DNA of 45,005 nucleotides. It comes from Myxococcota bacterium (lineage in GTDB: Bacteria > Myxococcota > XYA12-FULL-58-9 > JABJBS01). The notes under the pieces were generated by a model. That model searched no databases. It saw nothing but the letters and a program-made list of their open reading frames with translations, and was not told the DNA's origin. The stretch is from positions 1-45,005 of the forward strand of contig JAYZAY010000070.1 of the NCBI GenBank assembly GCA_036339465.1, written 5' to 3'. Below, one piece after another: positions 9,750-45,005 of the stretch (its first letter is position 1; each line of letters begins with the position of its first letter). The translations under genes and the position numbers were made by a program.

Positions 9750-10046
9750 GCATTAAACGTGCCATTAATTGAAAGTCATTACCGGGTGATTTTAGTGACT
9801 TACATTCGAAAACAGGGATTTTGTGATGGGGCACTAAATGATGGCTATTTGAAGAAAAAATTGGCGCCCTATGTCCCCATGAAAACGACTTTTAAGTGGG
9901 TTGTGGGTCTTTCGACTCTTGGTTTTTGGTCATTGGCTTGCCTGAATGCTACGGCGGGACGGACTGACATCGGTCATCATGATTTCCTTGTTCATCGTTC
10001 TCTCATCGGTTATCTAACGGCACTCAATGAATTAGGAGCAAGCTCC

Positions 10047-16960: not shown

Positions 16961-17418
16961 ATTTATCTTTCCTTTTCCGGCTCTGGCGCGGGATGGCTTG
17001 GCCGCCCAATAATACGGAAGTGAGTGCTTGAAAAGGGAGAAGATCGTAAGCCAGGGGCAAATCTCAGGGATCTGCTGGTCACGGGGCAGATGCGCAATCC
17101 ATTGCCTATGTAATGGGAGGGAATGGATTGGGCGGAAGGCGAGAACCTTGTGGGGCGGTGATCTAGGGTTTTCGGTGTTTCTGGGGTTAAGCCAGGGGAT
17201 ACAAAACAAGCGCATCGCCTCGGCGGCCACTTTGAAAAACGAAGCAGTTTTAGTGTGTTAGAACATCTGCGAATTTCAGCGGAATCAATCATAGGCTTTC
17301 GGGGTATTGATGTCGCTTAGATATTTCTTCTCGGCCTGGAGTTTGTAATTGACAGATCTGATTGCCTTAGGTTGAATGCACGTCCAGAAATCCGTTCTCC
17401 TCACCCAAGGTATTGTTC

Positions 17419-18546
17419 ATGCTAAAACATGTCTTTGTGGCCTCTTTTTTGGTTTTTCATCTCAGCGCCTGTGCCACCGACGACTTATGCGGGGGCGGCT
17501 CCCCTTGCCAAGAGGGATCGGAAGTGGAAGCCGAAACGACGGGGATCTCCGATGCCACCGAGCTTGCGGGCGAAACCGATGCGACTTTGGGCCAGGATCA
17601 AACCATTGTGGCCTTCGATGATGTTCATGTCTTTTTTGGTTCTGAAAACAAACGAACCGTGGATTCCACGGTGAGTTTTCCAGCGTTGGAGCAGGCCTTC
17701 CAAAAAGTCACCCTGCATTTTCGATTGAAGTGCCCGTCTCATGGTGGTTGTGACCATTGGGATCGCAAGGGTTGGTTGGGACTTGTTCAGAATGCCGGTA
17801 CGGACGCTGAATCTGTGATGGAGCTTTGGCGATTTATTACGCCCTACCGAGTTGCAGTGGATTGGACCCACGACATGACAGATTTGCGTCCCCTCCTGGC
17901 GGGTGACGTTCAGCTTCGGGTATTCATCGATACTTGGGTTGGTCCTGGCCACAGCGATGGAGCGGGTTGGTTGGTGGATTTGGATTTTGAATTTGAGGGT
18001 GGGTTCCCAGAGCGGATCCCACTGGCGGTGATTCCGGTGTGGACTGCCCGGAGCTTCGAATATGGAAATCCCGAGAAGCCCACCGATACTGTCTATTCCG
18101 AATCTATCACTCTGCCAGAAGGTGTGAACTATGGCAGTTTACGGCTGTTGATCACTGGTCATGGTCAAGGCAACGCAGAATATTGCGCTGAGTTTTGTCC
18201 AAAAAACCACTATCTTACGGTGGAGAATCAGGCGTTTTCCGAAAGGATTTGGCGCAATGATTGTGCTGTGACTGCGGCGTCAGGGCAGTATGGCAATTAC
18301 GCCTCGCCCCGCGCGGGGTGGTGCCCCGGGGCATATGTCCGGCCTTGGACGGTGGATGTTTCATCTCAGGTTGCAGGCAAGAGCCAAATTTCGGTGGATT
18401 ATGGGGTTGAGGCTTATGAAAATACTTGTCTCCCAGGGGCTGAGCCATGCACGGGCTGTGTTTATAATACTGGATGTGATTATAACGGTGGTACCCATAC
18501 TCAATCCCATTATCTCTTTTCCGGATTACTAACGGTTTATCGCTAA
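17419..18546 (+). CDS. Peptide-N-glycosidase F-like lipoprotein
   Basis: Lipobox LSA-C; CDHWDR, ELWRFITPY, TDLRPLL, ITGHG, CAEFC, RAGWCPG motifs. Confidence 0.8.
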   Translation: MLKHVFVASFLVFHLSACATDDLCGGGSPCQEGSEVEAETTGISDATELAGETDATLGQDQTIVAFDDVHVFFGSENKRTVDSTVSFPALEQAFQKVTLHFRLKCPSHGGCDHWDRKGWLGLVQNAGTDAESVMELWRFITPYRVAVDWTHDMTDLRPLLAGDVQLRVFIDTWVGPGHSDGAGWLVDLDFEFEGGFPERIPLAVIPVWTARSFEYGNPEKPTDTVYSESITLPEGVNYGSLRLLITGHGQGNAEYCAEFCPKNHYLTVENQAFSERIWRNDCAVTAASGQYGNYASPRAGWCPGAYVRPWTVDVSSQVAGKSQISVDYGVEAYENTCLPGAEPCTGCVYNTGCDYNGGTHTQSHYLFSGLLTVYR

Positions 18547-28206: not shown

Positions 28207-31200
28207 ATGACTTTTCGCTTCGTAGGGGCAGTGGGAATACTTCTTGGCGCGGTGACATTTTCCGCCTGTGCCGATCGGCGCTTTTTTGGCGAACCGGAAT
28301 CTAAAACCCTACGGGATTCCGGTGGGGCTGAGTACGCCGCCCACGAATTGGTGTTTATGCCCTCTGCCCAAGGCACCGCCGACAAACTCAAGGCCATCTA
28401 TGAAACCATGGGGGCTGAAGTTATCAACGAGACGGCCCCCCTTTCTCAGTCTTTGGGGTATGTGCATTTGAAATTGTCTCCTGCCATGAGTGCCGATGAG
28501 GCAGCGACCCTACTTTTGGATTCCGGACTCGCGGAGTCGACGGAAAAAAATTATGTGGCACGGATCGATGTGACGCCCGGTGACCCAAGTTGGGACAGCT
28601 TATGGGGGCTCAGAGCGATCCATGGGGAAGAAGCATGGGAGATTTCCAAGGGTTCGGACGAAACAGTGGTGGCGGTATTGGATACGGGTATTCAATACGA
28701 CCATCCGGACTTGGACGCCAACATCTGGACGAATGAGGGTGAGACTCCGGGAAACGGTGTCGACGATGATGGCAACGGATGGGTCGATGATGTTCGTGGC
28801 TGGAATTTTGGTCGGTCTACGGGCAGAGCGTCCAATGACCCTTACGATATTCATTCCCATGGTACCCATGTGGCGGGAACTGTCGGTGCAGTAGGCGACA
28901 ATGGTGTGGGTGTGGTGGGGGTGAACTGGACGGTTCAGATTATTGCCGTCAATGTATTTAGCAAAATCGGATCAGGCGTTGGGGCCTATTCCACCGATAT
29001 CATCAATGGTTTTGTTTACGCGGCCGCCAATGGGGCGAAGGCTGTGAATACGAGCCTTGGAAGTTATCGCCGTTCTTCTAATCTAGAAACCAATGCCGTG
29101 GCTGATTTGAATGACCGAGGTGTTCTCTTGGTGGCAGCTGCGGGCAATATGGAAAATGATAACGACAGAAATCCCCATTGGCCTTCCAACATAGATCTGG
29201 CCAACGTGATTGCCGTGGCGGCTATGAAATCAGATCTTTCGCTCACGGACCGAAATGATTGGGGCTATAAGAATGGACAACCGGCGGGTTCGAGTTATGG
29301 GGCCACCACAGTCGATCTGGCGGCGCCGGGGCATCAAATCAACAGTACGGTGCCTGGAAGTGGCTATGCAAAGTTCAGTGGAACCTCCATGGCGGCTCCC
29401 CACGTCGCCGGTGCGGTCGCTCTTTTCTACTCACAGTTTCCCAAGGTGGGACATCTAGAGATGAAAGCCCACCTCTTGGGATCCACGCAACCGTCATCGA
29501 GCTTGAGCGGCAAGGTCTTGACTGGCGGTTATTTAGATCTCAAGAAGCTCCTGCGGGATTTCCGGGGCCCCCCTGCTCCTCCCCGGGACTTCGTCGCTCA
29601 GGTGGGCCCGAATCGCAGCATTCAAGTTCAATGGAATTGGGAAGCGGTGATGGATCCCCCAAGCCAGGATTTGGCGGGTTTTGACCTGCGGTATCGACCT
29701 GTGGGCACCACGGCTTATCAAGAGCTTAACTTGAATCCATCGGACCGGGTTTATGAGCTGAAGGGCTTAACCCATGAAACCGCCTATTCAGTGGAGATCA
29801 GGTCTCGGGGTGAGAATGGTGGTTTAAGTGAGTGGGTTGTGTCTCAAGATGTGCTGGTGGGCGATAACGTCGCACCGGCTAAAGTGGTGGACTTGATGGT
29901 GAGCTATCCGGAGGGTGAAGAAGTGAACTTTGCCATCATGCCGGGTCTTGAGAGTATCGACGAGTATTGGTCCGGGGCCCATTTAAATGACCGCCGTTCG
30001 GAGACCGGTTGGATTGCCCCCTACCGCAGCATTGATTTTGAAGAGACCCTGTTGATTCATTTGAGTGAGGTGGTTGAGATTGACCAGCTGCATTTATTGC
30101 CCAACTCGGTATACCCCGAGTTTTTCCCTGGAACCGTTCAAGTTGAGACTTCGCTGGATGGCGCCGCTTTTGAATATGGTGGGGTATTAAGGACTGCAGG
30201 TAATGTCGCGTCTGGACAATGGCAGTCGGTGGTGATGATACCGAGGGAAGCTGAGTGGCTGCGTATTCATTTGAGCGATGCCTACAGTCATGCTTCCGGC
30301 CGTTACTATCTGGGGTTGAGTGAGGTCATGGTTCGTAAGTTGCGGCAAGACCCCATGCGATTGGGGTTGCAATTTAGGGCTCCGGGAGATGACCCCGATA
30401 GTGGCCGAGCCGCCAAATATGAATTTTATTACAGTCGTTATTTAGGCAACACCGGGGGGCTTGCCAATGCTCAAAAGTTGTTTGAGGACACCAATCCCAA
30501 GCCCGCAGGCGTTCTTGAGAATTTCACGACACCCGAATTGGAGCCCAATACGACCTTCTATTTTCAATTGAAAGCGGTGGATGCTGCTGGCAATTGGTCG
30601 GAGTGGTCCAATATAGCTGAAGGTCGAACCAAGACCCAGCCTCCTCCAGCCATTGCAGATCTTACGGTGGTGGAGGTGGGCTCCAATCAGGTGACCTTTT
30701 CTTTTACGCCCCCGAAGGTGGGCGATCCCGCCGAAGCCCTCACAAACTATGATGTGCGCTTGAGTGAGGCTCCGATTTCGCCGCTTAATTTTCTTCAGGC
30801 AACATCATTGGATGTTGATTTTTCCTACGATTCAGCCACGGATAAAATGCTTTTTACGGTGGGTGGTTTGGCTTCCAACCGAACCTACTATTTTGCCCTT
30901 CAGGCCTTGGGCGAGAATGGTATTCGGGGAGGGATCTCCAATACCGTATCGGCACAACCCTCCGATGGCACCGATGATGTGGCGCCAGCCACGGTCACGG
31001 CGTTGGCCACCATCGCAGACAATCAATTCATTGCGTTGGCGGCATCGCCTTTGGTCAACACCAATCTCAGTGCCAACAATCTTTCGGATCTGGTGGACCG
31101 CGACCCGACCACTGTTTTTTCCCAGCGTGCCAATACGGACCAGAGCTTTCAGATCGAGTTTGAATTGGCTGACCCCCGCGCGTTGCAGTGGGTTGAGGTT

Positions 31201-34200
31201 AAGCAGGCTGAAACGTCCATTGAGACCCACTTGCCAGGACTCATCGAAGTTTTCGTGAGTCGTGATCGGGCATTGTGGATGCCCGTCTTTAAGGGGAATC
31301 CTGCGGAAAATGACAGTTCCATTTTCCTGAGTGATGGTTTGAAGGTTTTTAGTGGGCATTATGTGAAGCTCCGCTTTAGCGCTCTTTCGGAACTCAGCGA
31401 TGGAACTTATGGGGTAGATATTGCGGATATTTTGTTCCAGGGGGTGTCTCGGGATCCCGCACCTATTTATCTTACGTGGGTTGCTCCGGGTGATGATGAA
31501 TGGTTGGGAACGGTGAGTCGGTATGATTTGTATTATTCAAGTAAACCCTTTACCGGCGCTTCTCTCGATGCAGCAGATGTGACTCGATTGGAGTACACCT
31601 CATCTGCACCCTCGGGGGTTATCGAGGTTTTGGAGTTTACGGACTTAGAATATGACCAGATTTATCATTTTGGTATTATAGCCGAAGATGATTTGGGGAA
31701 CCGAAGTGAACTCTCTGCGCTGACCTCCTTTGAGACTTTCCGAGTTCCTCCCTATGCTCTTGCGGATCTTCGACACATTCCAGAGGCCGCTACCACCACT
31801 TCTCTAAAATTGGAGTTTCAACCCGCAGGCGCTGATCTCGACGGTGGATTGGCTTATCGGCATGAATGTCGTCGCCACACCGGTGCCATAACCTACGATA
31901 ATTGGGAAACCTTGCCGGTGGTTCTGAATGTTGTGAGCCAATCCCTTCATCATGGGGAGGATTTGGGAAGTGGGCAGTGGTTGGGCGAGGTGGTTTTCGG
32001 GGCTCGTTTTGATTTTACCATGGATGGTTTGGAGCCTACCACGGCGTATCAGGTGGCCTGTCTTGCTTTTGATAAGAAGGGCAATTCTTCCTTGATTTCG
32101 AATATCGCCAAGGGTGAAACCGTGGATGGCACGCCGCCCGGGGTGATTTCTGATTTGAAAGTGGAAGCGCTTCCTTTGGCTTCAGGGGAAAAATTGGGGT
32201 TGGCGCTCGACGGCTTTAGTGGGGAGTATAGTCGCTATTTCGCGGCGAGTAAGCTTTTGGACGATGACGTTACGACCTCTTGGGCCCATAAGCACGATGC
32301 GGCTTTTGTTGAATTTTCCATGGCGCAAGTTTCTACGATCGGTGAGTTTAAAATTAGGACTTCAGACTACTATCCTCAATTTGCACCCCGTGAAGTCACC
32401 ATCCTCGTGAAGTCGGGCGAAAGCGACCCTTGGAAAATGGTGTTGCCTATTTCTAATTTTTCGGCCCAGGATGGTTGGCAGTCTTGGAAGGTGGGTGGGG
32501 TGGACGCAAAGTATATTCGTATGGAAACCAAGCCCGCCCAATCGGGTCACTATGTGGTGCTGTCGGATTTTGCTGCGGTGACCCCTCCCCCACTGACTGC
32601 GAGCGTTCGCCTAAGCTGGATTGCTCCGGGAGACGACGACTTCGATGCCCAGATCCCTGTTGACCGCTATACCTTAGGAATACACGGGGAATACTTTGAA
32701 GATTTGGGCGCAGCGGCCCATAGAAAAGTGATTAGTGCCAACAGCCAGGGGCGCGCTTTGGTTCCCGGTGGAAATCTTGAGGTGGTTACCGTCGACGAGC
32801 TCGAAGGTGCCGCCCATTACTGTTTTGGGTTGGCAGCGCAAGATATCGCCGGGAATGTGTCTGCACTTTCAAATCGAGCCTGTACCGTTACGGTGGGTAT
32901 TCCACCTCCTCCCGTGACCGATTTGGAGGTCTTAACGGAATCCATTGCGGCACGAAGCTTTGCCCTGCGGTGGAGTATTTCGTCTGAGGTCGCTACAGGG
33001 TATCAGCTTTGTGTCCAGCCCACTGGGTTGACTACCGAATCTTGGGCAAATTGCGACAATATGATTCAAGGAGGCATTGGGTCTAACGTTACCACAATTC
33101 AGGTTTCAGTTGATTCTCTCAATCCCTTCACCCATTACTTTGCTGCGGTTCGTCTTTTGGATTCTAGCGGGAGTTTGAGTCCCATATCTAATTTGGTTGA
33201 AGTGGATACCAAGGATGATTTAGGGCCGAGTGCCGTCGCTGACCTGTCGGGGCATGTCAATGGTGCGCTTCCGGGAGCTTTAACCCTTAACTGGTCGTCC
33301 CCAGAGGATTTCGGAACAGAAAAGACGGTGATTCGCTATGAGCTTTTCTACCGGGTTGGAGGGAGTGTCACTGGCGAGAACTTGGGCACGAGTTTGTTGT
33401 GGAGCGGTAGCGGCGGTCTTTCCCCAAAGGCACCAGGGTCCACTGAAATTGTCAATTTGAGCCAATTACCCCGCGATATGATGGTGCATTTGGCGGTTCG
33501 GTCCTTCGATGAATACGACAATGCCAGTCCGCTTTCAAATTCCGTGGCCATTGCGACTTTAGCCGAACCTCCTTCTCCTATTGGGGATCTAGAGTTGGCT
33601 TATGCAACTTCTTTAGGTGCCATCGAGCTTACTTGGAGTGCGCCATCGGCCAACTACACCCATACCCATCAACCGGCAGGGGATGGCAAGGTGGCCCGTT
33701 ATTTGGTGAAGTTAAGTGACCAGGCCCTAAGTATCGGTGAGTGGGTCAACCTCAATGCCCACTCCTTTTTAGGGGGGGCCTTTGTTAAGGGTATGGGAGA
33801 ATCGCAAAATTATACATTGACCGGCTTGGCTTCTGGCCAGGCCTATTACGTGGCGTTGATTTCTGAGGATGAACATGGCCGATTTTCAGGGGTATCGAAT
33901 ATTGCTTCCATCACTTCCCGAGACCGAATTGCACCCAACAATCCTCAAGGACTTACGGTCACAGCTTTGGTGCATGAGCCTACGACGCTTCATTTGGGTT
34001 TTGTGGCGCCTGGGGATGATGGCGCTCAAAGTTCCGATAAAGTGGCGGGTTATGTGGTGCGTTACTACCAGAACTTTGGTAGCGTTCCCGCTGGATTTCC
34101 CGAGAGTTGTGGGGATGGTTGTGTGGAAAAAACTTTCTCCAGCGACATCGCCGCTGTGGGCAATGATGAGATTTTGGTTTTGGAGAACCTGCTTGGGGAG

Positions 34201-37200
34201 TCATCCTACGGCATTGCGGTGCAGGCTCTAGATGAAGTGGGGAATGAATCGGGGTTTTCTCTCAAGGAGGGCGCGACTGGTCCGGTGGCTCCCCTTGCTC
34301 CGAGCAATTTTGTTGCGGTAGAAGAAGAGGTGGTGAGTGCAGATTCGGTGAAGATAGGTCTTCAATGGAAGGCTCCTTCTGATGTGGGCCCAAACGGGGT
34401 GTCACAAAGGGCGGCTCGCTATATCATCGGCTATTCACCCTCCACCAGCGTTAGCGCTCAAAATCTTTTGGACCCAGATGTTTCAGTCACCCTCATTGAC
34501 AGTCCGCCGACGCCTGCGGATCCTGGGGAGAATGAGTCTTTGAGTTTGAGTGGTATGACGGCGGGTGTTCATTATCAATTTGGTATTATTGCGTTGGATG
34601 AAAATTCAGAGGCGTCAGATGTGGCTCAGGCGGTGGTTCAAACCACCGATATTGTGAGCCCAGATCCACCTAGGGATCTCGTGGTGACTTCATTGGATGA
34701 TGTTACCAAGTTACGTATCCAGTGGGAGGCTCCTGCGGGTTCTGGGGAGGCCAGTGACATTGCGACCTATGGAATTGTGGTTGGGGCTCCGGGGGTTGAT
34801 CTTTCGGGGTGTGGCGATTGTTTATCGGCCCAAGTGAATGTGGTTGAGGGTGCGAACTATGACTTTGCGGGTTTGGTGGGTGAGACCGCGTATCGGGTGG
34901 GTGTTAGGGCATGTGATGAGTCAGACAATTGCAGTGATTTTACTCTTGCCGATGGAGAGACCTCGCCTATTTCGCCAGCGAGAATGGATTTTTCTGTGGT
35001 GGATGGATCTCGAAATACGACGTCTCTTTCTTTGAAGTTTGTCGCCCCCGGCGATGATGATTTTTCAGGTCGGGCGGCGTCCTTCGAGGTTTATTACAGT
35101 GCGTCGGAGATATCGGTTGAAAACTTTGGTGATGGGAATGACATCGAAATCTCTGTGGCGGTTGTGGATGGAGGGAGAGAGGTGGTGGTCCCTGTGACTG
35201 GTTTGCAACCGAACTCTGCCTATTATGTGATGGGTCGCGCGAAAGACGATAAAGGCGTGACTTCACCTTTGGGTGTCAACTTCGTTTTTCATACGTTGGA
35301 TACCCTCGCTCCAGGAATGGTGACTGATATTTCTCTCTCCGCGTATACCACGAGTCAGATGAAAATTTACTTTAAGGCGCCCGCAGAAGATGGCTCTGAA
35401 GGTGGTTCGCCTTTGGGCTATTATGTTCGGGTTTCGGAAAACAGTGAGATTGAAACCGAAGCGGATTGGTTGGCAGCGACAGATAAAGAAGTGGTGGTCG
35501 GTGAGCATTCTCCCGGCGACTCCATAAGTGTGGGTGTTTTTGGTTTGACCCATGAAATTAACTATGGCGTGGCCATACGGGCTTTTGATGAAGATGGCAA
35601 TCTAGGCCCCTTACACGGGCCATTGACCGGAAGTGTGGTACCCATCTCCCCCAGCGGAGTTGTATCCATCACCAGTGGCGTGGATGGCAAGACGGCCATC
35701 TTCACGTTTGTCGCCCCTGGCGATGATGGTGCCGCGGGGGGGGCGGTCACAGCCTATGAGGTAGCTCGATCGGTGTCGAATTTTGCGACTACGGATTTTG
35801 ATGACCATGTATTGGATGGGGTTGAAGCGGTGATTGCGCAACCCGGTGAAATTCAAGAGTTGCGGATTCTCTGTGCTGAGGAGTCCACACGCTATTGGTT
35901 TTCCATTCGAGCCGTTGATGATTGGGGGGCTAAGAGCAGACCTTCAGAAATAGTGAACGTGACAACGGAGGATTTAACGCCTCCCGCATCGTCGAACTTG
36001 ACGGCGCGAACCCTAGCGGACGAAGTGACGTTGGTGGAGCTGGATAGAGCTACGACCACCAGTTCCTTGGGGCCGGGTTGGGAATCCGGTTCACTTGTGG
36101 ATGGTAAGCTTTCTTCGAGTTGGGGTTCAGCGGCGTTGGCGGTGGGTGGTTACGAGGAAATCCGCATTGACCTGACGGATGTGACCATGATCGATCGCGT
36201 TCGGTTGGTGCCGGACGTGCTTTATTCTAAATTGTTTCCCAGGGATTTTGAGATTCAAGTGGGGGAAAACCTATCGATGTTGGAAACCGTTTATTCGGTA
36301 TCGGATCTGGATTTACGAATTGGAGAGCACGATTTTTCAAACGGTGTGACCTTTGGTTTTTCTCCTCAGTCGGCGAAGTATGTGGTGATCCGAGTTTCGG
36401 GGGCAGGTTCGCTCAGTGCTGGCGATGAGCAGGGCTATATTGCTCTAGCCGAGGTTCAAATTGTGGGGGCTCGGTTGGAATATCCTAGGGTCCAATTGGG
36501 ATGGACGGCACCTGGCGATGATCATACCGATGGTCGGGCGAGTGTGTATGAGGTGTTTGCTGATACGACGACCCTCGCTGCCGATCCCAGTAGTGCCCTA
36601 CGCTTAGCAGAACCGTCACCTCCAATACCCGGTCCAGCGGGCACCTTAGAGACAATGGTTTTGGAGTCGCTCCATGGCAAAACCACCTATTTTTTCGGGG
36701 TGCGGGCTGTGGATGAATCGAGCAACGAGGGTGAACTTTCCAATATCGCTTCACTTGCCACCGAAGATATTCCACCACGCAGCGCAGTTGCTCCACAAGT
36801 GATTGAGGCCACTCAAAATCAAATCGGTGTGAAGTTTCCTTCGGCATTGCACCCGGCAGCTGACACAGGCTATGCGCACCATTATCACCTTTATTACGAT
36901 TACACCCCATTTTATGACGAAGCATTACCGGCCAACTCGATGGATTCCTTTGTGGAGTCCGATGGCTTTTTTGAAGCTTCAATGACTGGGTTGGTTGCAA
37001 ATCAGGTGTATTATCTCGGGGTGATTGCCTATTCGGAATCCGGTCTTCCCTCCTATCTTTCCCCCCTATTGAAGGTGAAAACCCTAGCGGGTGAAGATAC
37101 CCAAGGGCCAGAAGCGGTTCGCTCTTTTAATGCATCGATTATTCAGGATTCATTTGAAGAGTTGGAGGTGCAAGGTGTGATCGAGCTTGGGAACAACGAA

Positions 37201-37893: not shown

Positions 37894-38028
37894 AATCGGA
37901 TCTGGGTTGAAGGAGAATTTAATGTCGTTAAATGTAGTCAAGTGAAGGCGTTACTTCATCGATTTTCTAGGCAGAATGCTTCAACTTTTTGTGTTTCTAC
38001 TCCGAAAGTCTGTTAGATTTAATGTATC

Positions 38029-41000
38029 ATGTGGAGGGGAAGTATTCGTCATTGCAGATATTTCGTATTTCTCGTTTCGGTGACTTTTTCACTTTCTTGT
38101 AGCGACGAGTCGCCTCAAAATGAAACAACGCACGGGTTTGTCGATCAAGCACAGCCCATCCAAAAGCTTGAGCAAGGTGTCGATATTGTATTTGGTCTGG
38201 GTTACGATTGTGACGATACTGACGATTGCGGCTCGGCGTTTTGTGTGGATGGTGTGTGCTGCGAAAGTGCGTGTGATGGTCTGTGTATGGGATGTGTCCG
38301 GAGCCAAACGGGTTTTGAGGATGGGCAGTGTGAGCCCGTCGCGGTCGACACGGATCCCGAGGGAGAATGCACCGATTCGCGCACTGAGGGTGAGGACCCC
38401 GATGGGGATGGTGACGCAGGGTACAAGTACTCCTGTGGAACCACTGGTGTGTGCAGTGGCATCAAGAATGGAACGACATCAAGTTGCGCATTAGAGCCCG
38501 TGGGAACAATCTGTCTGCCCCCTCGCTGCAACCGTTCTGAGTTTGTCCTGAACCAAGAGTGTGTGTGGGATACCGATTGTGGGCCGTATTCAAGGTGCAT
38601 CGATTACCAATGCACCACAGATCCAAGGCGGCGGCAATTTGTATTGAGGGAGTCTTATTGTAATGGTCTAGGTGCATGTAATGTAGAATACGGCAGCGGT
38701 GCGATTTCCCTCGATTGCTCTAATTATGCCTGCGCTGATTATGTCAATGCAGGCACTTCGGAGTGGCCGATTCCCCCAGACTCTGTCACATGCGAATCAG
38801 GCTGTGCAGGCGACGACGACTGCAATACCGGTTATCGGTGCGACGACCAGACAGAGTGTGTCCCCGATTCGAAAATTGAACCAGGACAAGAGTGTATTTC
38901 GAATGCCCAGTGTTCTTCCGGGAAATGTGACATGGGGATATGTTGCGAATCGGATTGTGCCACCTGTCAAACCTGCAATCCTCTTTATTGGGTGAAAAAC
39001 TGCACCAATGGTGAGTGTGTAGACGGTAGCTTGTGTACAAGTAGCTCTGATTGCCAGAGTCTTGAGAATTCGACCGGTACGTGCCGAAATGTTCGGAACG
39101 ATGATGCCCTCATTTGGACCCGCACATCTGGTGGGGCTTTGGAGTGTGCTCAGAATTCCTTTGAGCAATGTGGGACCGATGGGCATTGTAATGGTAGTGG
39201 AGGGTGTCGATATTGGGAACCGGGCACTCTTTGTCACCCACCCTACTGCTCCTGTTCGGAAGATGGGACCTCATGCTTCGCTCAAGAGTCTGTTAGTGTG
39301 TGTAGCGCGGTGTCGGATGGAACTCAAAGCTGTAACAAGTCTTCATGCACCAAGATCTCCACGTCCTGTAATTGCAGTGATTCTAACAATTACGGTGTCG
39401 ATGTTCTCTTAAGTGATACATGTGAATGTAGCAATATGGAGGACGTAAGCTGTGCTTTGGGGCAAGGCATCGTCCAATGCGGATTATATGGATGTGATGG
39501 AAACAACACCACGTGTTTATTGGCGTGTCAACAAACAGCAGAATGTACGGCGTTGGCCTATTGTGCGGAGGGAACATGTGAGCCCAAAAAAGAGAAGGGT
39601 TTTTCGTGTGGGTTGGATGAGGAATGTTTGACCGATTATTGCGCTAAAAACTATTGGGATGGTTCCGCCGCTCAAGTTGGGGTATCCACAGGCGTGTGTT
39701 GTGACGCCGGCTGTCGAGGAACATTGGAGGCCACAAATGATGCTGCCACAGGCATTTTCGGTTGTAAGGTGTGCGACAATTTGGGCGAGTGCAGTAATAC
39801 TGCAGTGGATACGGATCCTTTCGATGTCTGTGCTGCACCCGGTGTTTCTTCATCGGAGCGTTGTCAAAAGGGGACCTGTGATGGAAATGGGTATTGCGAC
39901 TATCACGGCCGAGAGGGAGAAAACTACGTGTGTGCATCGGGCTGCAAAGATAAACTGAATGTTTATGATACGAAATATTGTGAGTATTTAACTGCTAGTC
40001 ATTCGGCTTTTTGCCCCGCAAATACCTCGACCGACTGCGGTCTCTTTTCATGTGATCAGACAGGTGGCACCAATGAGTGTTTTCGCACCTGCACGCCGAA
40101 TTCAGGCTCATTGGATTCGTCCCAGTGTGAGTCGCATGACATCGTTTGCATCGACCAAATCTGTATCGACAAATATGGGCTAGGCGTTGACTGTGAGAAT
40201 GATTCACAATGCGCTTCTGGGAATTGTAAACCATTTTATGATGCATCTTTCGCAATCTCTGGAGATTCTGAAAAAAAATGCTGTGAAGCAACTTGCAGCT
40301 CAACCAGCCCATGTCAGGGTTGCAACGCAAACGGGCTCTGCACAAGTCTCCCAGCTGGAGTCAATGCCCGCACCAATGATTGTGATCCCGATGAGAATGA
40401 TCCCTGTGGTTTCTCGGGCCAGTGTGATGGTGCAGGGGCGTGTGGGTATGCCCCTTCAGGGACAGAATGTCAGGCTGCCGTGTGTAGCGGCAGCTCGAAA
40501 CAATTTGCCTACTATTGTAATACCACAGTCCCCACGCAACCAGGGACCTGTGGACCCAGTGCACAGGATGTGTCGTGTAACGATTATAATTGTTTCATTT
40601 CGAGTGGTGAACCTTCTTGTTATAGCGCATGTGAGTACAGTGGCCAATGTGTAAACGGTGCTTATTGTTTTGATGGAGAATGTAAGACCAATCACCCATC
40701 CAAGGCTCTCGCGATCTGGGATATCAAATTTCAAGCGGTAAGTGTTGTTGAACAGTTTGTGTTTTCTCTCGATCAAACCAGCCATCTTTGGGACTCTTTC
40801 CCCAATGATTGCTTGGGGGCGACTGAAGAGCGAGCCTACTGTGAACCGGGTCATGTTATGGTTGGCTTTGAACCCTACAGCTCTATGCAGGGCTTTAAAT
40901 TGGTTTGTGGCGAATTGGAATCTGATGGTAGCATCGCCATACCAGCCACTCAAAGCGGCGATAATAAGCTTTTACGAGGCCAGGCGCTGGGTGTAGCTGA

Positions 41001-44000
41001 CCCTCAGCAGCTTTGTACCTCGCCTGAGTATGTAAACAAGATAGACTATGAATCCGATGGAAGTGCTTTGTCGAGTTTTCAAGCCTCTTGTGGCGTTGGG
41101 AGTATGAGGAGTGGTGATGTGCTTGCGTGGGGGAGCTCGGGTAATTCGAGCAACGTCACAAGTGATTGTGAATCGAATGAGGCAGTGGTGGGAATCAAGG
41201 CACAGCTCATGGGGGACCGCATTTGTTCTATGGCGGTTCGGTGTGCTTCAGTGGTCGGTGTGGAAATCGATGCAACTGCGGAGGCAGTGACGTGGGCGCA
41301 TCCTATGGCTTTTGATCCAGATGACGTGGATACAATTGTTTGGCAAACGATAAGTGGCGCCGATAAGGAGGGTAACCAAGCGAAGTGGCAAGCCGACAGT
41401 GCCGACTTTTCGGGCAATGATAGTTATTCCTATACGGTTGACAACGCATCCTACTACGGCACCGGTAGTGCATGGCAGGCGGATGTTAATATTGTTGTGG
41501 GGCGCACCGCGCCTTTCTTCATGGATAGTTCCTCCGGCCTCATCTGGATGAAATGCCCCCAGGGCATGATCTACAATGTGGTTAGCGATACGTGCGAAGG
41601 TGTGATGGATAAATTTAACTACTGCCACCACAATTCAAATGCCTGCAATGGGGACATCTTTGATGCCTTGGTGAAAATCGATGGTGATGCTCCCGGGGGG
41701 ACATGTCCTTACGGAGGCATAAAGATTAAAGGCGCCCTTGATGCCAATTACAACGGAGCGCTGGATTGGATTGAGCTAAGCCCCGGCGGCGAATATTATG
41801 AGGATCCTCTTTTGGGTCACCGAAGTACCACTTATGGGAAATATGTTTGTGCCCTAGAAAACCAGGGGGCCACAGTTAACTTCATCCATGAGCCAGCTGG
41901 CCCCAACTGTTTGTTTGGCGGCCAGAAGATAGAAATTAATAATGGATGGCTCTATAACGATAGCGGCACAACTGACCAGACGGAGGACTATTTTTGTGAT
42001 GGCGATTACGTCATTGGCGCGGGCCAACACCGACCGGAACACGATCATGGGATTTTGCGAGCGGGTGGACTCTTTGATACTTGTAATGATTTAAACAGAG
42101 GTGGTCAAACCGGTTGGCGAGTCCCCACCCTTGATGAGCTTAAGTCTATGACTCGTTGTGCCGATGGGAGCACTCCTAAAAGTGTTGATGTCCCATTTGG
42201 TACCCCACCCTATAAATCGTGGCAGTGTGATGACCAGATCGAATCTCAATCCATTATTGATCTTATTCCTCACCCAGAGTTTAAGGCTATCAGCGATCCA
42301 ACCAGTGGCTTGAGAGTTTGGTCGGCAAACGCGGGGGTTCATGGGTCGATATTAACTCCAACCACGGCTAAGGCCGCATTCCTGAATTTTTATGGCTCAA
42401 CATTTCTTCAAGACGGCACTTACAATGTTGACAGATTCGATAGCAATTCCGCCGGCGATCCGATTAATCAATATGGGGTGTTCTGTGTAAATGGGCCGCC
42501 GGAGCAGATGCCCCAAGAGATTGACCCGAACTCCACCTGCATTGATCAAGGGGATGGTACATGCATATGGACATGCAACGAGGGCTACCACTACCATCAT
42601 TCAAGCCTTGGGCAGGTTTCGGAATATCAGGCCTCCGAGGATTGCAAAACCTGCCACCTTGATTTCTGTGTACCGCCGTCATTTTCCGATCCACAAGTTT
42701 ACGATCAATGGGGTAAGCCTTTGTTTAGCGAACACGGAACTTACGTCGCCGAATATTCTGAAGATACGTATCATGACCATAGCCGTGCCTGGCCTGCATT
42801 CGGGAGCAAAGCCACTTTTTCCTGCAAGAATGGCTACTATCTAAGCGGCGAGGCCGAACGATACTGCGTGGCAGGTGGCGAGTGGTCGGATTCTATGGAT
42901 GCCGAGTCCTCGAGGGAGTTTCCTCTCTGTGAGCCCTGCACAACCGTTGCCAATTGCAAAGCGAACAAGATTACTTGCACAAACGACACCGACCAAGTGT
43001 GCAGCGAATGCCAAGACGGATATGTGGGCGACGGCAGCCCTACCGGCACCGCTACCTGCTTGGTGGACTGTGGCTCGCTATCAAACACCATTACGGATGG
43101 CACGGTGGTGCTTGACGGCGGGGCGACCACTCACGGGTCCACTGCTTCTGTTCAATGCAATTCAGGCTATTATCGCGAAGGCACTTCTCCCCTTAAATGT
43201 GAGGACACGGGCTCATGGGAATGGGAGAGCAATACTTCCCCCACCTGTCTGCCCTGCACAACCGTTGCCAATTGCGAGGCGGTGACATGCACCAATTCCT
43301 GCGCAGCTTCTTATCATTATATTGCTCCGGGACGAGTGAACCAAAGCCACTGGAACAATAAGCCTGAGTCCATATGCACAGACCCCACTTCCAATCAGGG
43401 AGCTGAGAGCGGAGTTGGTTATGCTTCCGCATATGGAACCGACATTACCGTCACCTGCTGCAATAGCTCTGGCTCGAGCGGCGCACGTCCAGGTTGTGAA
43501 AGGCCAAAAACTTATGCGGAAGCAGTAGAAATCTGCGAAAATGCCGGTTATCGACTGTGCACTCTTGATGAAATGTTGAACGAAGTGACGCGGGGTACGG
43601 GCTGTAATTTTGATAATTCGTACAACTGGGTGTCGGATACATGCGATCCACCCAGTAATGACGTAAACTCGGGGGGGGCGGTTGGTTGTTCCATCTCCAG
43701 CAGCTGCGAAAGTGGATATGCGGGAGACCAGGTAACTTGCACAAGCGCCACCGACCAAGTGTGCACCACCTGCAAAGATGGATATGTGGGCGACGGCAGC
43801 GCTACCTGCACCATTAAATCCTGCGATGCCCTCACAACAGCCAATGGCTCCGTGGCCTACACCGGTGATGACCTTGGGAATAACAACTCCCACACGTTTG
43901 GAGCCACCGCTACGCTCAGCTGTGATGATGGCTACTACCTAAGCAGCGACGTGACCCCCACCTGCAACGCCAACGGAGCATGGAGTGGTGCCTTGCCCTC

Positions 44001-45005
44001 GTGCAACGTTTGCAACGATGTCTCTCATTGCGCGGGGACGGTGACTTGCACAAGCAACTCCAACCAAGTCTGCAACCAATGCGCAGACGGATATGTGGGC
44101 GACAATACCAATACCTGCACTTTCTACGCACCGGGCGCAGCATGCCCTCCTGGAGCGCTTTATGGGCAATCCTGCTATCCTATTATGCCCACGGGCATCA
44201 CCGAGTGCTATGATGAGAGCAGCGCGATTTCTTGCCCAGGTACCCCCGGCGGATCGTCTTATCCTATTTTTGGTCAATGGTATCTCGTCTTTAGACAAAC
44301 GAGCCCTTATTTATGGACATCCCATCAAAGTTTTTCCTTAAATGCCGGTGATCCAGAAAATGATAATTATTCTATTTTAGACACGATAACTGATTTTAAA
44401 AGTGCTGATGGTACATATCGATTTAAGTATGTTGATCCAGACACGGGTGATTACAACGATTGGAGACAAACAAATAACCTAACAAACGAAGCACAAGCTG
44501 GATACAGTTCCGTTGATGTTGCGTTCGATGCGAGGGGCTTTGAGGGTTTAGCTCCTACTAGCCGTGAAGAGACCCATATTGATGGTACTGTAAATGATAA
44601 TTGGTGGTATGCCATTGCCGCTACATACAAGGGCAGTAATGGGTTTCCTGGTTTAGACCGTTGGCAGGAAAAAGTAGAACTCTATGCAATGAAAGAATGG
44701 AGTGATCATTCATCTACCTGCAAAGATACGGAATTTTGTGGTCAAGACGGGCAATACCCAGATGTGCCCAATCCCCGTTATACCTGCATAAACGCAAATG
44801 GCGCAGACGTCGCCTGCAGCACCCCTCCTTCGGCCACGGGAGAGACGGTCTACGATAATTTCACAGGCCTCACTTGGCAACGACACGAACCTACAACTAA
44901 AACGGTTTCTGAGGCAGAGAGTGCGTGTACTAGCCTCAACGCCGGCGGTCTAACCTCTTGGCGGATGCCCACAATCACCGAATTGCGAACCCTACTCAAT
45001 TGGAG
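38029..45005 (+). CDS. Giant (>=2325 aa, 3'-truncated) Cys-rich multidomain lipoprotein/adhesin: Cys repeats, beta-prism-like, Ig-like, Lcl/DUF1566, Sushi/CCP, fibrinogen-like
   Basis: Translated by hand: in-frame TAA at 38020, ATG at 38029 (MWRGSIRHCRYFVFLVSVTFSLS-C lipobox), no in-frame stop to the window end. Missing from the ORF track, presumably because it has no stop in the window. Confidence 0.88.
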   Translation, partial: MWRGSIRHCRYFVFLVSVTFSLSCSDESPQNETTHGFVDQAQPIQKLEQGVDIVFGLGYDCDDTDDCGSAFCVDGVCCESACDGLCMGCVRSQTGFEDGQCEPVAVDTDPEGECTDSRTEGEDPDGDGDAGYKYSCGTTGVCSGIKNGTTSSCALEPVGTICLPPRCNRSEFVLNQECVWDTDCGPYSRCIDYQCTTDPRRRQFVLRESYCNGLGACNVEYGSGAISLDCSNYACADYVNAGTSEWPIPPDSVTCESGCAGDDDCNTGYRCDDQTECVPDSKIEPGQECISNAQCSSGKCDMGICCESDCATCQTCNPLYWVKNCTNGECVDGSLCTSSSDCQSLENSTGTCRNVRNDDALIWTRTSGGALECAQNSFEQCGTDGHCNGSGGCRYWEPGTLCHPPYCSCSEDGTSCFAQESVSVCSAVSDGTQSCNKSSCTKISTSCNCSDSNNYGVDVLLSDTCECSNMEDVSCALGQGIVQCGLYGCDGNNTTCLLACQQTAECTALAYCAEGTCEPKKEKGFSCGLDEECLTDYCAKNYWDGSAAQVGVSTGVCCDAGCRGTLEATNDAATGIFGCKVCDNLGECSNTAVDTDPFDVCAAPGVSSSERCQKGTCDGNGYCDYHGREGENYVCASGCKDKLNVYDTKYCEYLTASHSAFCPANTSTDCGLFSCDQTGGTNECFRTCTPNSGSLDSSQCESHDIVCIDQICIDKYGLGVDCENDSQCASGNCKPFYDASFAISGDSEKKCCEATCSSTSPCQGCNANGLCTSLPAGVNARTNDCDPDENDPCGFSGQCDGAGACGYAPSGTECQAAVCSGSSKQFAYYCNTTVPTQPGTCGPSAQDVSCNDYNCFISSGEPSCYSACEYSGQCVNGAYCFDGECKTNHPSKALAIWDIKFQAVSVVEQFVFSLDQTSHLWDSFPNDCLGATEERAYCEPGHVMVGFEPYSSMQGFKLVCGELESDGSIAIPATQSGDNKLLRGQALGVADPQQLCTSPEYVNKIDYESDGSALSSFQASCGVGSMRSGDVLAWGSSGNSSNVTSDCESNEAVVGIKAQLMGDRICSMAVRCASVVGVEIDATAEAVTWAHPMAFDPDDVDTIVWQTISGADKEGNQAKWQADSADFSGNDSYSYTVDNASYYGTGSAWQADVNIVVGRTAPFFMDSSSGLIWMKCPQGMIYNVVSDTCEGVMDKFNYCHHNSNACNGDIFDALVKIDGDAPGGTCPYGGIKIKGALDANYNGALDWIELSPGGEYYEDPLLGHRSTTYGKYVCALENQGATVNFIHEPAGPNCLFGGQKIEINNGWLYNDSGTTDQTEDYFCDGDYVIGAGQHRPEHDHGILRAGGLFDTCNDLNRGGQTGWRVPTLDELKSMTRCADGSTPKSVDVPFGTPPYKSWQCDDQIESQSIIDLIPHPEFKAISDPTSGLRVWSANAGVHGSILTPTTAKAAFLNFYGSTFLQDGTYNVDRFDSNSAGDPINQYGVFCVNGPPEQMPQEIDPNSTCIDQGDGTCIWTCNEGYHYHHSSLGQVSEYQASEDCKTCHLDFCVPPSFSDPQVYDQWGKPLFSEHGTYVAEYSEDTYHDHSRAWPAFGSKATFSCKNGYYLSGEAERYCVAGGEWSDSMDAESSREFPLCEPCTTVANCKANKITCTNDTDQVCSECQDGYVGDGSPTGTATCLVDCGSLSNTITDGTVVLDGGATTHGSTASVQCNSGYYREGTSPLKCEDTGSWEWESNTSPTCLPCTTVANCEAVTCTNSCAASYHYIAPGRVNQSHWNNKPESICTDPTSNQGAESGVGYASAYGTDITVTCCNSSGSSGARPGCERPKTYAEAVEICENAGYRLCTLDEMLNEVTRGTGCNFDNSYNWVSDTCDPPSNDVNSGGAVGCSISSSCESGYAGDQVTCTSATDQVCTTCKDGYVGDGSATCTIKSCDALTTANGSVAYTGDDLGNNNSHTFGATATLSCDDGYYLSSDVTPTCNANGAWSGALPSCNVCNDVSHCAGTVTCTSNSNQVCNQCADGYVGDNTNTCTFYAPGAACPPGALYGQSCYPIMPTGITECYDESSAISCPGTPGGSSYPIFGQWYLVFRQTSPYLWTSHQSFSLNAGDPENDNYSILDTITDFKSADGTYRFKYVDPDTGDYNDWRQTNNLTNEAQAGYSSVDVAFDARGFEGLAPTSREETHIDGTVNDNWWYAIAATYKGSNGFPGLDRWQEKVELYAMKEWSDHSSTCKDTEFCGQDGQYPDVPNPRYTCINANGADVACSTPPSATGETVYDNFTGLTWQRHEPTTKTVSEAESACTSLNAGGLTSWRMPTITELRTLLNW
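42933..44103 (+). repeat. Dispersed intragenic DNA repeats encoding CTTVANC and TCT-x3-QVC-x2-C-x-DGYVGD modules
   Basis: Identical 25-mer at 42933-42957 and 43251-43275; three similar ~60-bp copies near 42973, 43735 and 44044. Confidence 0.85.

Follow-up and report, generated by a model that had tools for sequence, protein, structure and literature searches.

Subtilases (family S8) that are displayed on the cell surface and followed by FN3-type domains are known from Gram-positive bacteria, including the lactococcal PrtP, which digests external protein for nutrition, and the streptococcal C5a peptidase. Enzymes of the PrtP and C5a-peptidase type are held by a C-terminal LPXTG anchor, are much shorter than the subtilase described here (gene 1) and lack discoidin modules; the anchor of gene 1, if any, is N-terminal, upstream of the putative prodomain. 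NCBIfam models matched by gene 1 far below their thresholds include dentilisin PrtP (49.6 bits vs 300) and the SGO_0316 family (24.6 vs 1400). In Omnitrophota and further phyla, giant proteins combine an S8 domain with F5_F8_type_C or adhesion modules, and have been proposed to act on the surfaces of other cells in predation (10.1101/2023.11.21.568195). Gene 1 resembles them as a very large predicted surface protein that joins S8 with F5_F8_type_C modules. However, the survey in question describes classes of at least 5,000 aa and of more than 10,000 aa with transmembrane segments, whereas gene 1 has 3228 aa and a lipoprotein signal, and its family is absent from the survey passages.

The second gene of the locus (gene 2) carries two copies of a Pfam domain (Lcl_C) that takes its name from the C-terminal domain of Lcl, the Legionella collagen-like adhesin. 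Lcl is the founding member of this family and recognises sulphated glycosaminoglycans on eukaryotic cells (PMC11162425). In contrast to Lcl, gene 2 has no collagen repeats, and two DUF7151 modules are inserted into its first Lcl_C domain. The Sushi/CCP modules of gene 2 match chains of complement receptor 2, CD46 and poxviral complement regulators, but differ from complement proteins in their bacterial lipoprotein setting and in alternating with EGF-like Cys-rich linkers. A further, fibrinogen-related-domain-like (FReD-like) domain has, in a predicted model, the same fold as ficolins, angiopoietin-like proteins and fibrinogen, although it measures ~140 aa against ~215 in canonical domains and gene 2 has no recognisable A-subdomain.

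Both genes lie on the forward strand of the window, the whole stretch of 45,005 nucleotides analysed here, which is the entire contig C70 (Table 1). A first-pass annotation described two co-oriented lipoprotein genes 135 bp apart, encoding 3228 and at least 2325 aa, and the ORF calls and lipoprotein-type signals agree with this. Gene 2 is truncated by the assembly, since the window is the whole contig. The extension of the contig for which the annotation had asked was not obtained: no contig of the same genome overlaps the end of C70, and JGI metagenome contigs scanned with the last 300 aa of gene 2 yielded distant DUF1566 matches only (39-53% identity) and no extension. Contig C37 holds a candidate continuation of gene 2.

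Table 1. Features of the two genes and their intervening spacer, in window coordinates.
Feature	Position	Strand	Description and basis
Gene 1 ORF	28207..37893	+	3228 aa; lipoprotein-type pre-pro-subtilase with FN3/discoidin array; ORF, Pfam, colinear family alignment
Gene 1 signal peptide and lipobox	28207..28269	+	..VTFSAC, Cys21; read from sequence
Subtilase prodomain (putative)	28303..28539	+	aa 33-111; Pfam Fervidolysin_NPro-like, 20.6 bits vs cut-off 21, E 5.9e-4
S8 catalytic domain	28657..29487	+	D159, H218, N314, S394; Pfam, motifs, family alignment
FN3/discoidin array	29569..37875	+	18 FN3 and 5 discoidin-like domains; internal HMM iterations, Pfam on 29 overlapping segments
Discoidin-like domain 1	29914..30351	+	aa 570-715; Pfam F5_F8_type_C 3.5e-6 on segment; internal HMM
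Discoidin-like domain 2 (weak)	31084..31434	+	aa 960-1076; internal HMM only; no Pfam match at E <=0.001
Discoidin-like domain 3	32179..32601	+	aa 1325-1465; Pfam 3.6e-6; internal HMM
Discoidin-like domain 4	36016..36462	+	aa 2604-2752; F5_F8_type_C 1e-8, F5_F8_type_C_2 5.8e-7; internal HMM
Discoidin-like domain 5 (weak)	37216..37443	+	aa 3004-3079; internal HMM; NCBIfam NADase_discoid 0.0079, under its cut-off
Intergenic spacer	37894..38028	+	135 bp, A+T-rich; sequence
Gene 2 ORF	38029..45005 (codons to 45003)	+	>=2325 aa; Cys-rich mosaic lipoprotein-type adhesin, open at contig end; ORF, Pfam
Gene 2 signal peptide	38029..38100	+	lipobox-like ..FSLSC, Cys24; sequence; holds if ATG at 38029 is the start
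Cys-rich region	38191..40683	+	aa 55-885; four degenerate super-repeats from near aa 61, 289, 527 and 721; Cys counts and motif positions
VOMI-like (beta-prism) stretch, unconfirmed	40801..41223	+	Pfam VOMI 4.2e-4, 20.9 bits vs cut-off 25
First DUF1566/Lcl_C domain, with two inserted DUF7151 modules	41506..42348	+	DUF7151 4.8e-13, 2 stretches; Lcl_C 2.4e-5 on segment
Sushi/CCP module 1, then EGF-like linker	42739..42936	+	Pfam Sushi; PDB sequence matches
Sushi/CCP module 2	43066..43254	+	Pfam Sushi; PDB sequence matches
Sushi/CCP module 3	43822..44004	+	aa 1932-1992; Pfam Sushi profile positions 1-56 of 56
Compact FReD-like domain	44272..44697	+	~140 aa (aa 2082-2223); 571 relatives at E <=0.001; structure model
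Second DUF1566/Lcl_C domain	44842..44997	+	Lcl_C 4.1e-12 on last segment; contig end at profile position 57-58 of 117

The lipobox pattern rule for bacterial lipoproteins was applied by eye to both genes. By this rule gene 1 is a predicted lipoprotein, with a signal peptide ending in a lipobox, and a lipobox-type Cys is present in all eight N-termini of its family that were inspected. The putative prodomain separates the predicted lipid anchor from the catalytic domain, and the homologue P0006 carries a precomputed PF22148 annotation. Peptidase_S8 (PF00082) matches aa 151-427 of gene 1 at 1.3e-45 (156.4 bits vs 21.8; 161.6 bits in the genome search), and the motifs DTG159, HGTH218 and GTSMAAP392 are all present. 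The intact S8 triad reported in the first-pass annotation is borne out: D159, H218 and S394 stand in unbroken Asp-His-Ser order and, together with the oxyanion residue N314, are invariant in the four family members aligned. A genome profile search identified gene 1 as the sole S8 locus in the 92.8%-complete assembly.

The array behind the catalytic domain is ~2770 aa in size, so that ~86% of the gene 1 protein consists of binding and spacer modules, with discoidin-FN3-FN3 blocks on both sides of a central run of ten FN3 domains. Pfam on the whole protein returns fn3 at 3.1e-63 and F5_F8_type_C at 2.3e-26 (92.8 bits vs 28.2, three stretches). Five discoidin-like domains had been claimed for it; three of these are strong, while copies 2 and 5 are weak (internal HMM i-E 0.005 and 3.6e-6, respectively). 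The accompanying picture of a protease carried on a long FN3 stalk does not hold, as the S8 domain is next to the predicted N-terminal lipid anchor, with the FN3/discoidin array beyond it.

Of the five other genomes in the same family of the phylum, three carry a colinear homologue of gene 1, and so does one genome from a different family (G001, G004, G002 and G034). The gene 1 family comprises colinear proteins of 2930-3694 aa, for which the NCBI name is 'discoidin domain-containing protein'. Three database homologues, all uncharacterised, are P0006 (3694 aa, labelled Pseudomonadota bacterium), P0007 (2930 aa, labelled Deltaproteobacteria bacterium) and P0008 (JGI, 3037 aa), with 33, 31 and 28% identity to gene 1, respectively, in end-to-end alignment. 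They share with gene 1 the lipobox, putative prodomain and S8 domain followed by FN3 and discoidin blocks, and the catalytic residues are invariant; P0006 differs in an additional C-terminal extension. A contig scan with S8-core patterns of the family alignment A2, from which the genome itself was excluded, yielded 80 subtilase loci of a generic kind, spread over many phyla, and no useful context.

Judged from its sequence, gene 1 on its own would suit the role of a feeding protease armed with lectin modules. Its order of lipoprotein signal, prodomain and S8 domain, then FN3 spacers with discoidin-type sugar-binding modules, suggests that after export the array may hold glycan-rich material, such as prey envelopes or glycoproteins of algae or particles, for the protease to digest as food. 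Because the putative prodomain sits between lipid anchor and enzyme, self-processing, which is ordinary for subtilases, would detach the mature enzyme, array included, from the anchor if the prodomain does not remain bound. This position of the prodomain, and the large share of the protein taken up by the array, would also suit an S8 domain that acts mainly on its own polypeptide, cutting the precursor into FN3/discoidin pieces or releasing it, in which case gene 1 would be chiefly an adhesin or matrix protein. Self-directed cleavage of this kind has been proposed for giant proteins with an N-terminal S8 domain in other phyla, in a preprint that gives cleavage of other substrates as an alternative (10.1101/2023.11.21.568195). 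The catalytic residues and the architecture are kept colinearly at only 28-33% identity, which fits any function, and we regard a mainly self-directed protease as unlikely. If gene 1 is instead a feeding protease, some uncultured marine bacteria concentrate all their subtilase activity in one enzyme of 3228 aa with five predicted sugar-binding modules, which would bear on marine glycoprotein breakdown and predation.

The signal peptide and lipobox of gene 2 depend on the ATG at 38029 being the start codon; one database gene call places the start 17 codons further on (2308 aa). A homologous N-terminus in a relative (G002:C149) reads ..LLLSAAC. Gene 2 encodes 190 Cys residues (8.2%), with ~12 per 100 aa across its first 880 aa. 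The super-repeats of this part are defined solely by the positions of Cys motifs, and self-BLAST of the Cys-rich region detects no repeats at E <=0.001. The region matches no Pfam or NCBIfam family, and a Cys-rich module of ~60 aa within it (aa 58-117) recurs in giant proteins of G027, G006 and G017 at 46-55% identity. For the VOMI-like stretch, a single-sequence structure model reaches a pLDDT of 35 only, and in the Atlas VOMI is present on 16-21% of the members of the nearest named clusters.

Over the whole gene 2 protein, Pfam matches Lcl_C at 6.2e-19 (68.8 bits vs 34.9, two stretches) and Sushi at 4e-16 (59.6 bits vs 20.7, three stretches). The Sushi pattern of four Cys and a Trp is visible in the third module, and among PDB sequences the Sushi modules matched complement receptor 2 and viral complement-control proteins at 1.3e-6 to 1e-3. 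The Cys counts and the Pfam Sushi and Lcl_C matches agree with the first-pass description of gene 2 as having Cys-rich repeats and several lectin-like and complement-like domains. The domain matches are likewise in line with the overall reading of the locus, in which a lectin-armed subtilase lies next to a multidomain adhesin of eukaryote-like make-up and each has a lipoprotein-type signal.

The compact domain near the contig end of gene 2 shares the fibrinogen-related fold according to its structure model (pLDDT 91.7). When this model was compared with 48161 chains (VIA), the best six were all fibrinogen-related, namely 6eua (Z 8.8, rmsd 3.4 over 135 residues) and five other fibrinogen-related domains (Z 6.7-7.2), and the next unrelated fold had a Z of 4.0; the top rows in Foldseek are ficolins, tenascins and angiopoietins. 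Pfam Fibrinogen_C gave no match on gene 2 (E up to 0.1) or on 27 aligned members of the FReD-like family (E up to 1), and the family profile against PDB sequences gave a single chance-level row (E 0.76). The protein P0043 shows the usual order, with a canonical Fibrinogen_C A-subdomain ahead of the FReD-like domain. Across the 27 relatives scanned, no Pfam model was matched consistently, and the domain is a candidate lectin family that could be given a description of its own.

Among 3697 scored candidates of 1278-4069 aa, the only full-length match to gene 2 is gene 2 itself. Matches at E <=1e-8 occur in six of 41 genomes, its own included, and the foreign ones are all domain-sized (<=155 aa); this search used a stricter first look and may have missed weak matches. 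A word-index search with aa 881-2325 returned 0 of 8000 candidates at E <=0.001, which reflects the method, since an exhaustive search finds the 571 relatives of one domain. A narrow literature search found no paper combining 'DUF1566', 'Sushi' and 'bacteria', which is no proof that the combination is unpublished.

Gene 2 can be pictured as a lineage-specific mosaic adhesin, in which a disulphide-rich N-terminal rod would bear DUF1566/Lcl_C, Sushi/CCP, EGF-like, FReD-like and possibly VOMI-like modules that may bind glycans or proteins on the surfaces of eukaryotic cells or of particles; roles other than adhesion are also conceivable for the Sushi, FReD and DUF1566 modules. It would exemplify how a large bacterial adhesin is built from shuffled modules that are otherwise animal-typical. 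The match of the Sushi modules to complement regulators, the clusters labelled Cnidaria and viruses among the Atlas neighbours of the FReD-like domain, and the recognition of sulphated glycosaminoglycans on eukaryotic cells by Lcl (PMC11162425) could point further, to a bacterium that lives on a marine eukaryote as symbiont or pathogen and for which both genes are host-interaction factors, with the animal-like modules of gene 2 (Sushi/CCP, FReD, EGF-like, VOMI-like) mimicking host proteins so as to bind the host or escape its recognition, and gene 1 degrading host matrix. However, the public runs that contain the locus carry marine or seawater metagenome labels rather than host-tissue ones, and the many other giant mosaic proteins of the genome fit general surface adhesion. 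We consider a dedicated role in host interaction very unlikely.

The first-pass annotation had joined the two genes into a candidate for an undescribed capture-and-digest system, and had set conservation of the pair in relatives beforehand as the observation that would decide against it if lacking. A gene-2-like gene lies 3' of the gene 1 homologue in none of three assembled downstream contexts (G001:C215, G004:C2 and G002:C402), all of them in fragmented MAGs and two from one genus. The first two contexts have a convergent Ser/Thr-kinase-receiver gene in this place, and the third a 120-aa ORF followed by a convergent gene. When the 23 ORFs of the window were compared with eight loci of relatives (tblastn, E <=1e-8, rows >80 bits), gene 1 alone was matched, and at a contig edge in G000 there is no syntenic counterpart of the genes downstream in G001. 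Where parts of gene 2 recur, a subtilase does not accompany them: in G002:C149, a divergent gene for a Cys-rich lipoprotein lies next upstream of the gene-2-like N-terminus, and the 4704-aa protein of G027 with the shared Cys-rich module has no S8 neighbour. Since the pair is not conserved, the capture-and-digest system is unsupported as a two-gene unit. The genes are not together in relatives and therefore appear to encode separate surface proteins instead of a new machine of two parts, and the locus does not amount to a new kind of system.

Youth of the unit would explain this lack of conservation. The only subtilase of the genome may recently have gained a co-transcribed downstream mosaic adhesin (Sushi, FReD-like, EGF-like, DUF1566), forming a young capture-and-digest unit against eukaryotic cell surfaces or glycoprotein-rich particles, a history that we find unlikely. 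The tethered apparatus itself, newly assembled in the lineage and expressed from one promoter upstream of gene 1, would have gene 2 bind the target and gene 1 digest it, or gene 1 mature gene 2. It is favoured by lectin-type modules in both proteins, by their similar signal peptides (..VTFSAC in gene 1, ..VTFSLSC in gene 2), by the status of gene 1 as the only subtilase of the assembly, and by the arrangement of the genes: an operon is possible because they are co-oriented and 135 bp apart, and no terminator-like site lies in the gap. A consensus scan, at background level throughout, found no promoter-like site in the spacer either. Also, chance adjacency of two among about a dozen giant genes in ~4 Mb is not likely a priori (a few percent, as a rough estimate), which speaks against independence. 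In addition to the absence of co-conservation and of a full-length relative of gene 2, however, the ATG of gene 2 has no Shine-Dalgarno-like sequence in front of it, and the other Cys-rich giants of the genome cannot have an S8 neighbour, since there is a single S8 locus. On balance, a two-gene apparatus appears improbable.

The genome has 12 stop-free frames of at least 2000 aa, several of them Cys-rich, and large frames lie side by side elsewhere in it as well (C96, C66 and C67). Among the 20 of 69 pieces listed of public-run contigs, none spans 37859-37952, and such contigs cannot show a transcript; positions 36000-37893 of gene 1 have no cover in two RNA libraries, which is not evidence of silence. 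The two giant proteins, secreted or of the cell envelope, are probably independent products of an uncultured marine bacterium, and their genes are adjacent but form no conserved two-gene unit. The genes may share transcription, and each would be expected to work without the other. A PNGase F-like gene is located 10 kb upstream of the pair.

The window, 45,005 bases, is the entire contig C70 of a 4.17-Mb assembly (102 contigs, 92.8% complete, G+C 0.489), and its last 16.8 kb are filled by two co-oriented open frames, gene 1 and gene 2 (see table). The first-pass annotation had described them as tandem giant lipoprotein-type genes, the second of at least 2325 residues, with the same orientation and a 135-bp gap, and this description is confirmed. 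It had also read them as one tethered capture-and-digest system, or as a protease that matures its neighbour. We consider that the two genes probably encode surface or secreted proteins that are independent of each other: gene 1 a feeding protease and gene 2 a lineage-specific mosaic adhesin.

Features of the two-gene locus, neighbouring genes and RNA contigs
Feature	Window position	Strand	Residues	Remarks
PI-PLC-X-like gene	9759-10949	+		2e-5
PNGase F-like gene	17413-18546	+		N-glycanase_C 6.4e-19, N-glycanase_N 5.7e-9
Gene 1	28207-37893	+		3228 aa, open frame
Discoidin-like domain 1			Gene 1, 570-715	Strong
Discoidin-like domain 2			Gene 1, 960-1076	Weak, i-E 0.005
Discoidin-like domain 3			Gene 1, 1325-1465	Strong
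Discoidin-like domain 4			Gene 1, 2604-2752	Strong
Discoidin-like domain 5			Gene 1, 3004-3079	Weak, i-E 3.6e-6
Gene 2	38029-45003	+		2325 aa, stop-free up to the contig end
Unnamed FReD-like domain	44272-44697		Gene 2, 2082-2223	About 140 aa
X16 RNA contigs	38701-38886, 41325-41581, 44164-44382
X17 RNA contig	38195-38365

In gene 1, whole-protein Pfam searches place Peptidase_S8 at residues 151-427 (1.3e-45), fn3 (3.1e-63) and F5_F8_type_C in three stretches (2.3e-26); all NCBIfam models stay below their cut-offs. The protein contains the catalytic motifs DTG159, HGTH218 and GTSMAAP392, and D159, H218, N314 and S394 are invariant across the family alignment, in agreement with the intact S8 triad reported earlier. 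The N-terminus, read by eye against the general lipobox pattern, ends in ..VTFSAC with Cys21 as the putative lipobox cysteine, and residues 33-111 resemble the fervidolysin N-terminal prodomain slightly below the cut-off (20.6 vs 21 bits). Models built from the protein's own copies, together with Pfam on 29 segments, delineate 18 FN3 and five discoidin-like domains, arranged as discoidin-FN3-FN3 blocks flanking a run of ten FN3; of the five discoidin-like domains previously claimed, three are strong and domains 2 and 5 weak. The parts follow in the order lipid anchor, prodomain, enzyme and array, hence the enzyme lies next to the anchor with the array beyond it, and the protease does not sit on a long FN3 stalk as had been thought. 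Gene 1 is the sole S8 locus of the assembly (tblastn; Pfam model). A 2576-aa frame on contig C25 runs out at the contig edge within a 'WTAPGDDG' FN3 repeat resembling those of gene 1; it has no S8 domain.

The discoidin modules of gene 1 would hold the protease on glycan-rich substrates, for feeding, and self-processing of the subtilase after the prodomain would detach enzyme and array from the anchor. S8 self-processing has been proposed for other giant proteins in a preprint (10.1101/2023.11.21.568195); as the main role of the gene 1 domain it appears unlikely. The same preprint describes, in general terms, giant surface proteins combining S8, discoidin and adhesion modules. Both genes add members to a known kind. 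Upstream genes in the window include adenylate cyclases, CheD, a PNGase F-like gene and a PI-PLC-like gene; no secretion partner is among them, and none corresponds to the relatives' loci among the matches listed. Enzymes of the PNGase F and PI-PLC-X types have eukaryote-type glycoproteins and lipids as substrates, in keeping with a diet of eukaryotic material. That the two genes serve interaction with a host is the least probable of the readings considered.

The gene-1 family is already in databases under a generic name. A word-index search with gene 1 retrieved 32 proteins, and its architecture is common to three: P0006 (3694 aa; 1235 bits, 31% identity, 72% query cover; NCBI 'MAG: discoidin domain-containing protein [Pseudomonadota bacterium]'), P0007 (2930 aa; 1086 bits, 28%, 73%; NCBI 'MAG: discoidin domain-containing protein [Deltaproteobacteria bacterium]') and P0008 (3037 aa; 722 bits, 28%, 40%; JGI, unnamed). 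Aligned end to end with gene 1, they show 33%, 31% and 28% identity, respectively. Matches to the first 1000 residues at E 0.001 or better occur in 38 of 41 genomes, chiefly via the S8 core, with long colinear matches in G004, G001, G034 and G002 only; the last 800 match three of the five other genomes of its own family and none of the 16 from the order's other families. All eight readable N-termini of the gene-1 family carry a lipobox-type cysteine.

Gene 2 behaves differently. Among 3697 scored candidates of 1278-4069 aa there is no full-length relative, and the three matches at E 0.001 or better are gene 2 itself (as a 2308-aa call), one that spans only 2% of the query and a 48-bit Kelch protein, 'MYXO-CTERM domain-containing protein'. 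In a six-frame search with a stricter first look, five of 40 relatives' genomes match at E 1e-8 or better, each over at most 155 aa. The gene-1 homologues of two genomes of the same genus (G001:C215, G004:C2) are followed by a convergent Ser/Thr kinase-receiver gene; after that on G002:C402 there is a 120-aa ORF and, beyond it, a convergent gene. A gene-2-like N-terminus on G002:C149 (36% identity over residues 8-162, lipobox ..LLLSAAC) has as its adjacent upstream gene a divergent Cys-rich lipoprotein and no subtilase. A 4704-aa protein of G027 combines the Cys-rich module of gene 2 with FG-GAP, Kelch, PKD and invasin domains, and has DnaJ/TPR and acyl-CoA dehydrogenase genes as neighbours. 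Since gene 2 lacks a full-length relative, its genome matches are short and the neighbourhoods disagree, the two genes do not form a conserved unit. Their coupling, which proximity, orientation and similar signal peptides favour and nothing else does, is improbable. The 135-bp gap is A+T-rich, and a consensus scan, at background level overall, placed no promoter-like or terminator-like site within it; GGGGAG is present upstream of the gene 1 ATG, with nothing comparable upstream of that of gene 2. Stop-free frames of at least 2000 aa number 12 in the assembly, some being rich in cysteine, and large frames adjoin each other elsewhere too, so that neighbouring large surface genes are not unusual in it. 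The locus is probably not the undescribed system for which it was proposed as a candidate.

On G002:C149, the divergent frame beside the gene-2-like N-terminus (L045, 14842-16116, minus strand) is of lipoprotein type, at least 425 aa long, with repeats 'DC.GV.GG.A..D.CG.C' and without a Pfam match. Further giant frames of our assembly lie on C26, C68, C78+C48, C4, C12 and C25, and its Cys-rich giants include frames of 6177 aa (6.0% Cys) and 3536 aa (7.0%), and one of 1932 aa that extends into a further 792 aa.

Gene 2, which would be a lineage-specific mosaic adhesin, contains 190 cysteines (8.2%), with 10-16 per 100 aa over the first 880 residues, and four degenerate super-repeats with a C..G.C..G.CC motif near residues 61, 289, 527 and 721; neither Pfam nor NCBIfam has a family that matches this region. 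There follow a VOMI-like stretch (20.9 bits vs a Pfam cut-off of 25), from which the protein cluster resource Atlas leads to VOMI-bearing clusters, and a weak Ig-like stretch. Next in order are a DUF1566/Lcl_C domain with two inserted DUF7151 modules, three Sushi modules that each have an EGF-like Cys-rich linker after them, the unnamed domain, and a second Lcl_C domain broken by the contig end at profile position 57-58 of 117. In a search of solved structures the Sushi modules hit complement receptor 2, CD46 and poxviral complement regulators (1.3e-6 to 1e-3). Cysteine counts, Pfam, PDB matches and fold search uphold the Cys-rich repeats and lectin-like and complement-like domains noted initially. 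The hints of Myxococcota are a sub-threshold match to the MXAN_2561 family, the name of P0005 and Atlas clusters with that phylum as the commonest.

At least a quarter of the sampled words of 36900-39100 occur in each of 12 runs, which come from six studies and are described as marine or seawater metagenomes except for one labelled only 'metagenome' and one unlabelled; these labels are the basis for regarding the organism as marine. X1 and X2, runs from different studies, contain long, near-identical pieces over the locus. Two RNA libraries, X16 and X17, yield four short identical contigs, all within gene 2, only a weak hint that it is expressed, since such libraries may also contain DNA.

As gene 2 stops partway through the first half of a DUF1566 domain, a 351-aa frame at the end of contig C37 (L128, 14663-15718, minus strand), its 5′ end open at the contig edge, is from its sequence a plausible 3′ end across a short gap. 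It comprises a DUF1566 tail (by eye; no profile match reported), a full Lcl_C (82.7 bits), one Sushi-like module, EGF-like modules and a stop; the gene after it codes for a receiver-adenylate cyclase and is no secretion partner. The other Cys-rich open head, on C48, can be assigned to C78, whose tail it overlaps. One low-depth X1 contig (depth 2.5) joins window base 45005 to 43305 with 18 other letters between, in frame by arithmetic and absent from the assembly. The join may reflect a repeat of the modules from 43305 onwards further on in gene 2, hence the contig break, or may be an assembly artefact.

The most original by-product of the analysis is the unnamed domain of gene 2, which fold comparison of a model and the domain order of a relative identify as a compact, divergent fibrinogen-related domain (FReD). 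An exhaustive phmmer search recovered 571 relatives of the domain at E 0.001 or better, and 164 of these reach 1e-10 or better. Its sequence profile does not place it in Pfam Fibrinogen_C, no Pfam family matches the 27 aligned members consistently, and a family profile search of PDB sequences returned nothing. The structure model, from the relatives' alignment, has a pLDDT of 91.7. Its top Foldseek rows are all ficolins, tenascins and angiopoietins, at weak E-values (about 0.01; TM 0.4-0.5). In a wide VIA search the best match is 6eua (Z 8.8, rmsd 3.4 over 135 residues), followed at ranks 2-6 by further fibrinogen-related structures (Z 7.2, 7.1, 7.0, 6.9, 6.7), with intelectin at Z 4.7 and the first unrelated fold at 4.0. 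In the relative P0043, a copy at residues 597-744 comes directly after a canonical Fibrinogen_C A-subdomain (residues 559-605, Pfam profile positions 3-48), and similar A-subdomain-like sequence precedes a second copy. Other Pfam families, among them H_lectin, PA14, C-type lectin, SASA, Laminin_G_3 and Fibrinogen_C, occur on nine of 20 relatives scanned. The family is a candidate undescribed lectin family.

Over 44127-44427, contig depth rises about fivefold in two marine DNA runs (24.6 and 28.3 vs roughly 5 elsewhere), and loose contig ends there lead into A+T-rich sequence of no relation; short, nearly identical pieces of the FReD-like coding sequence appear to be present in other organisms of these samples.
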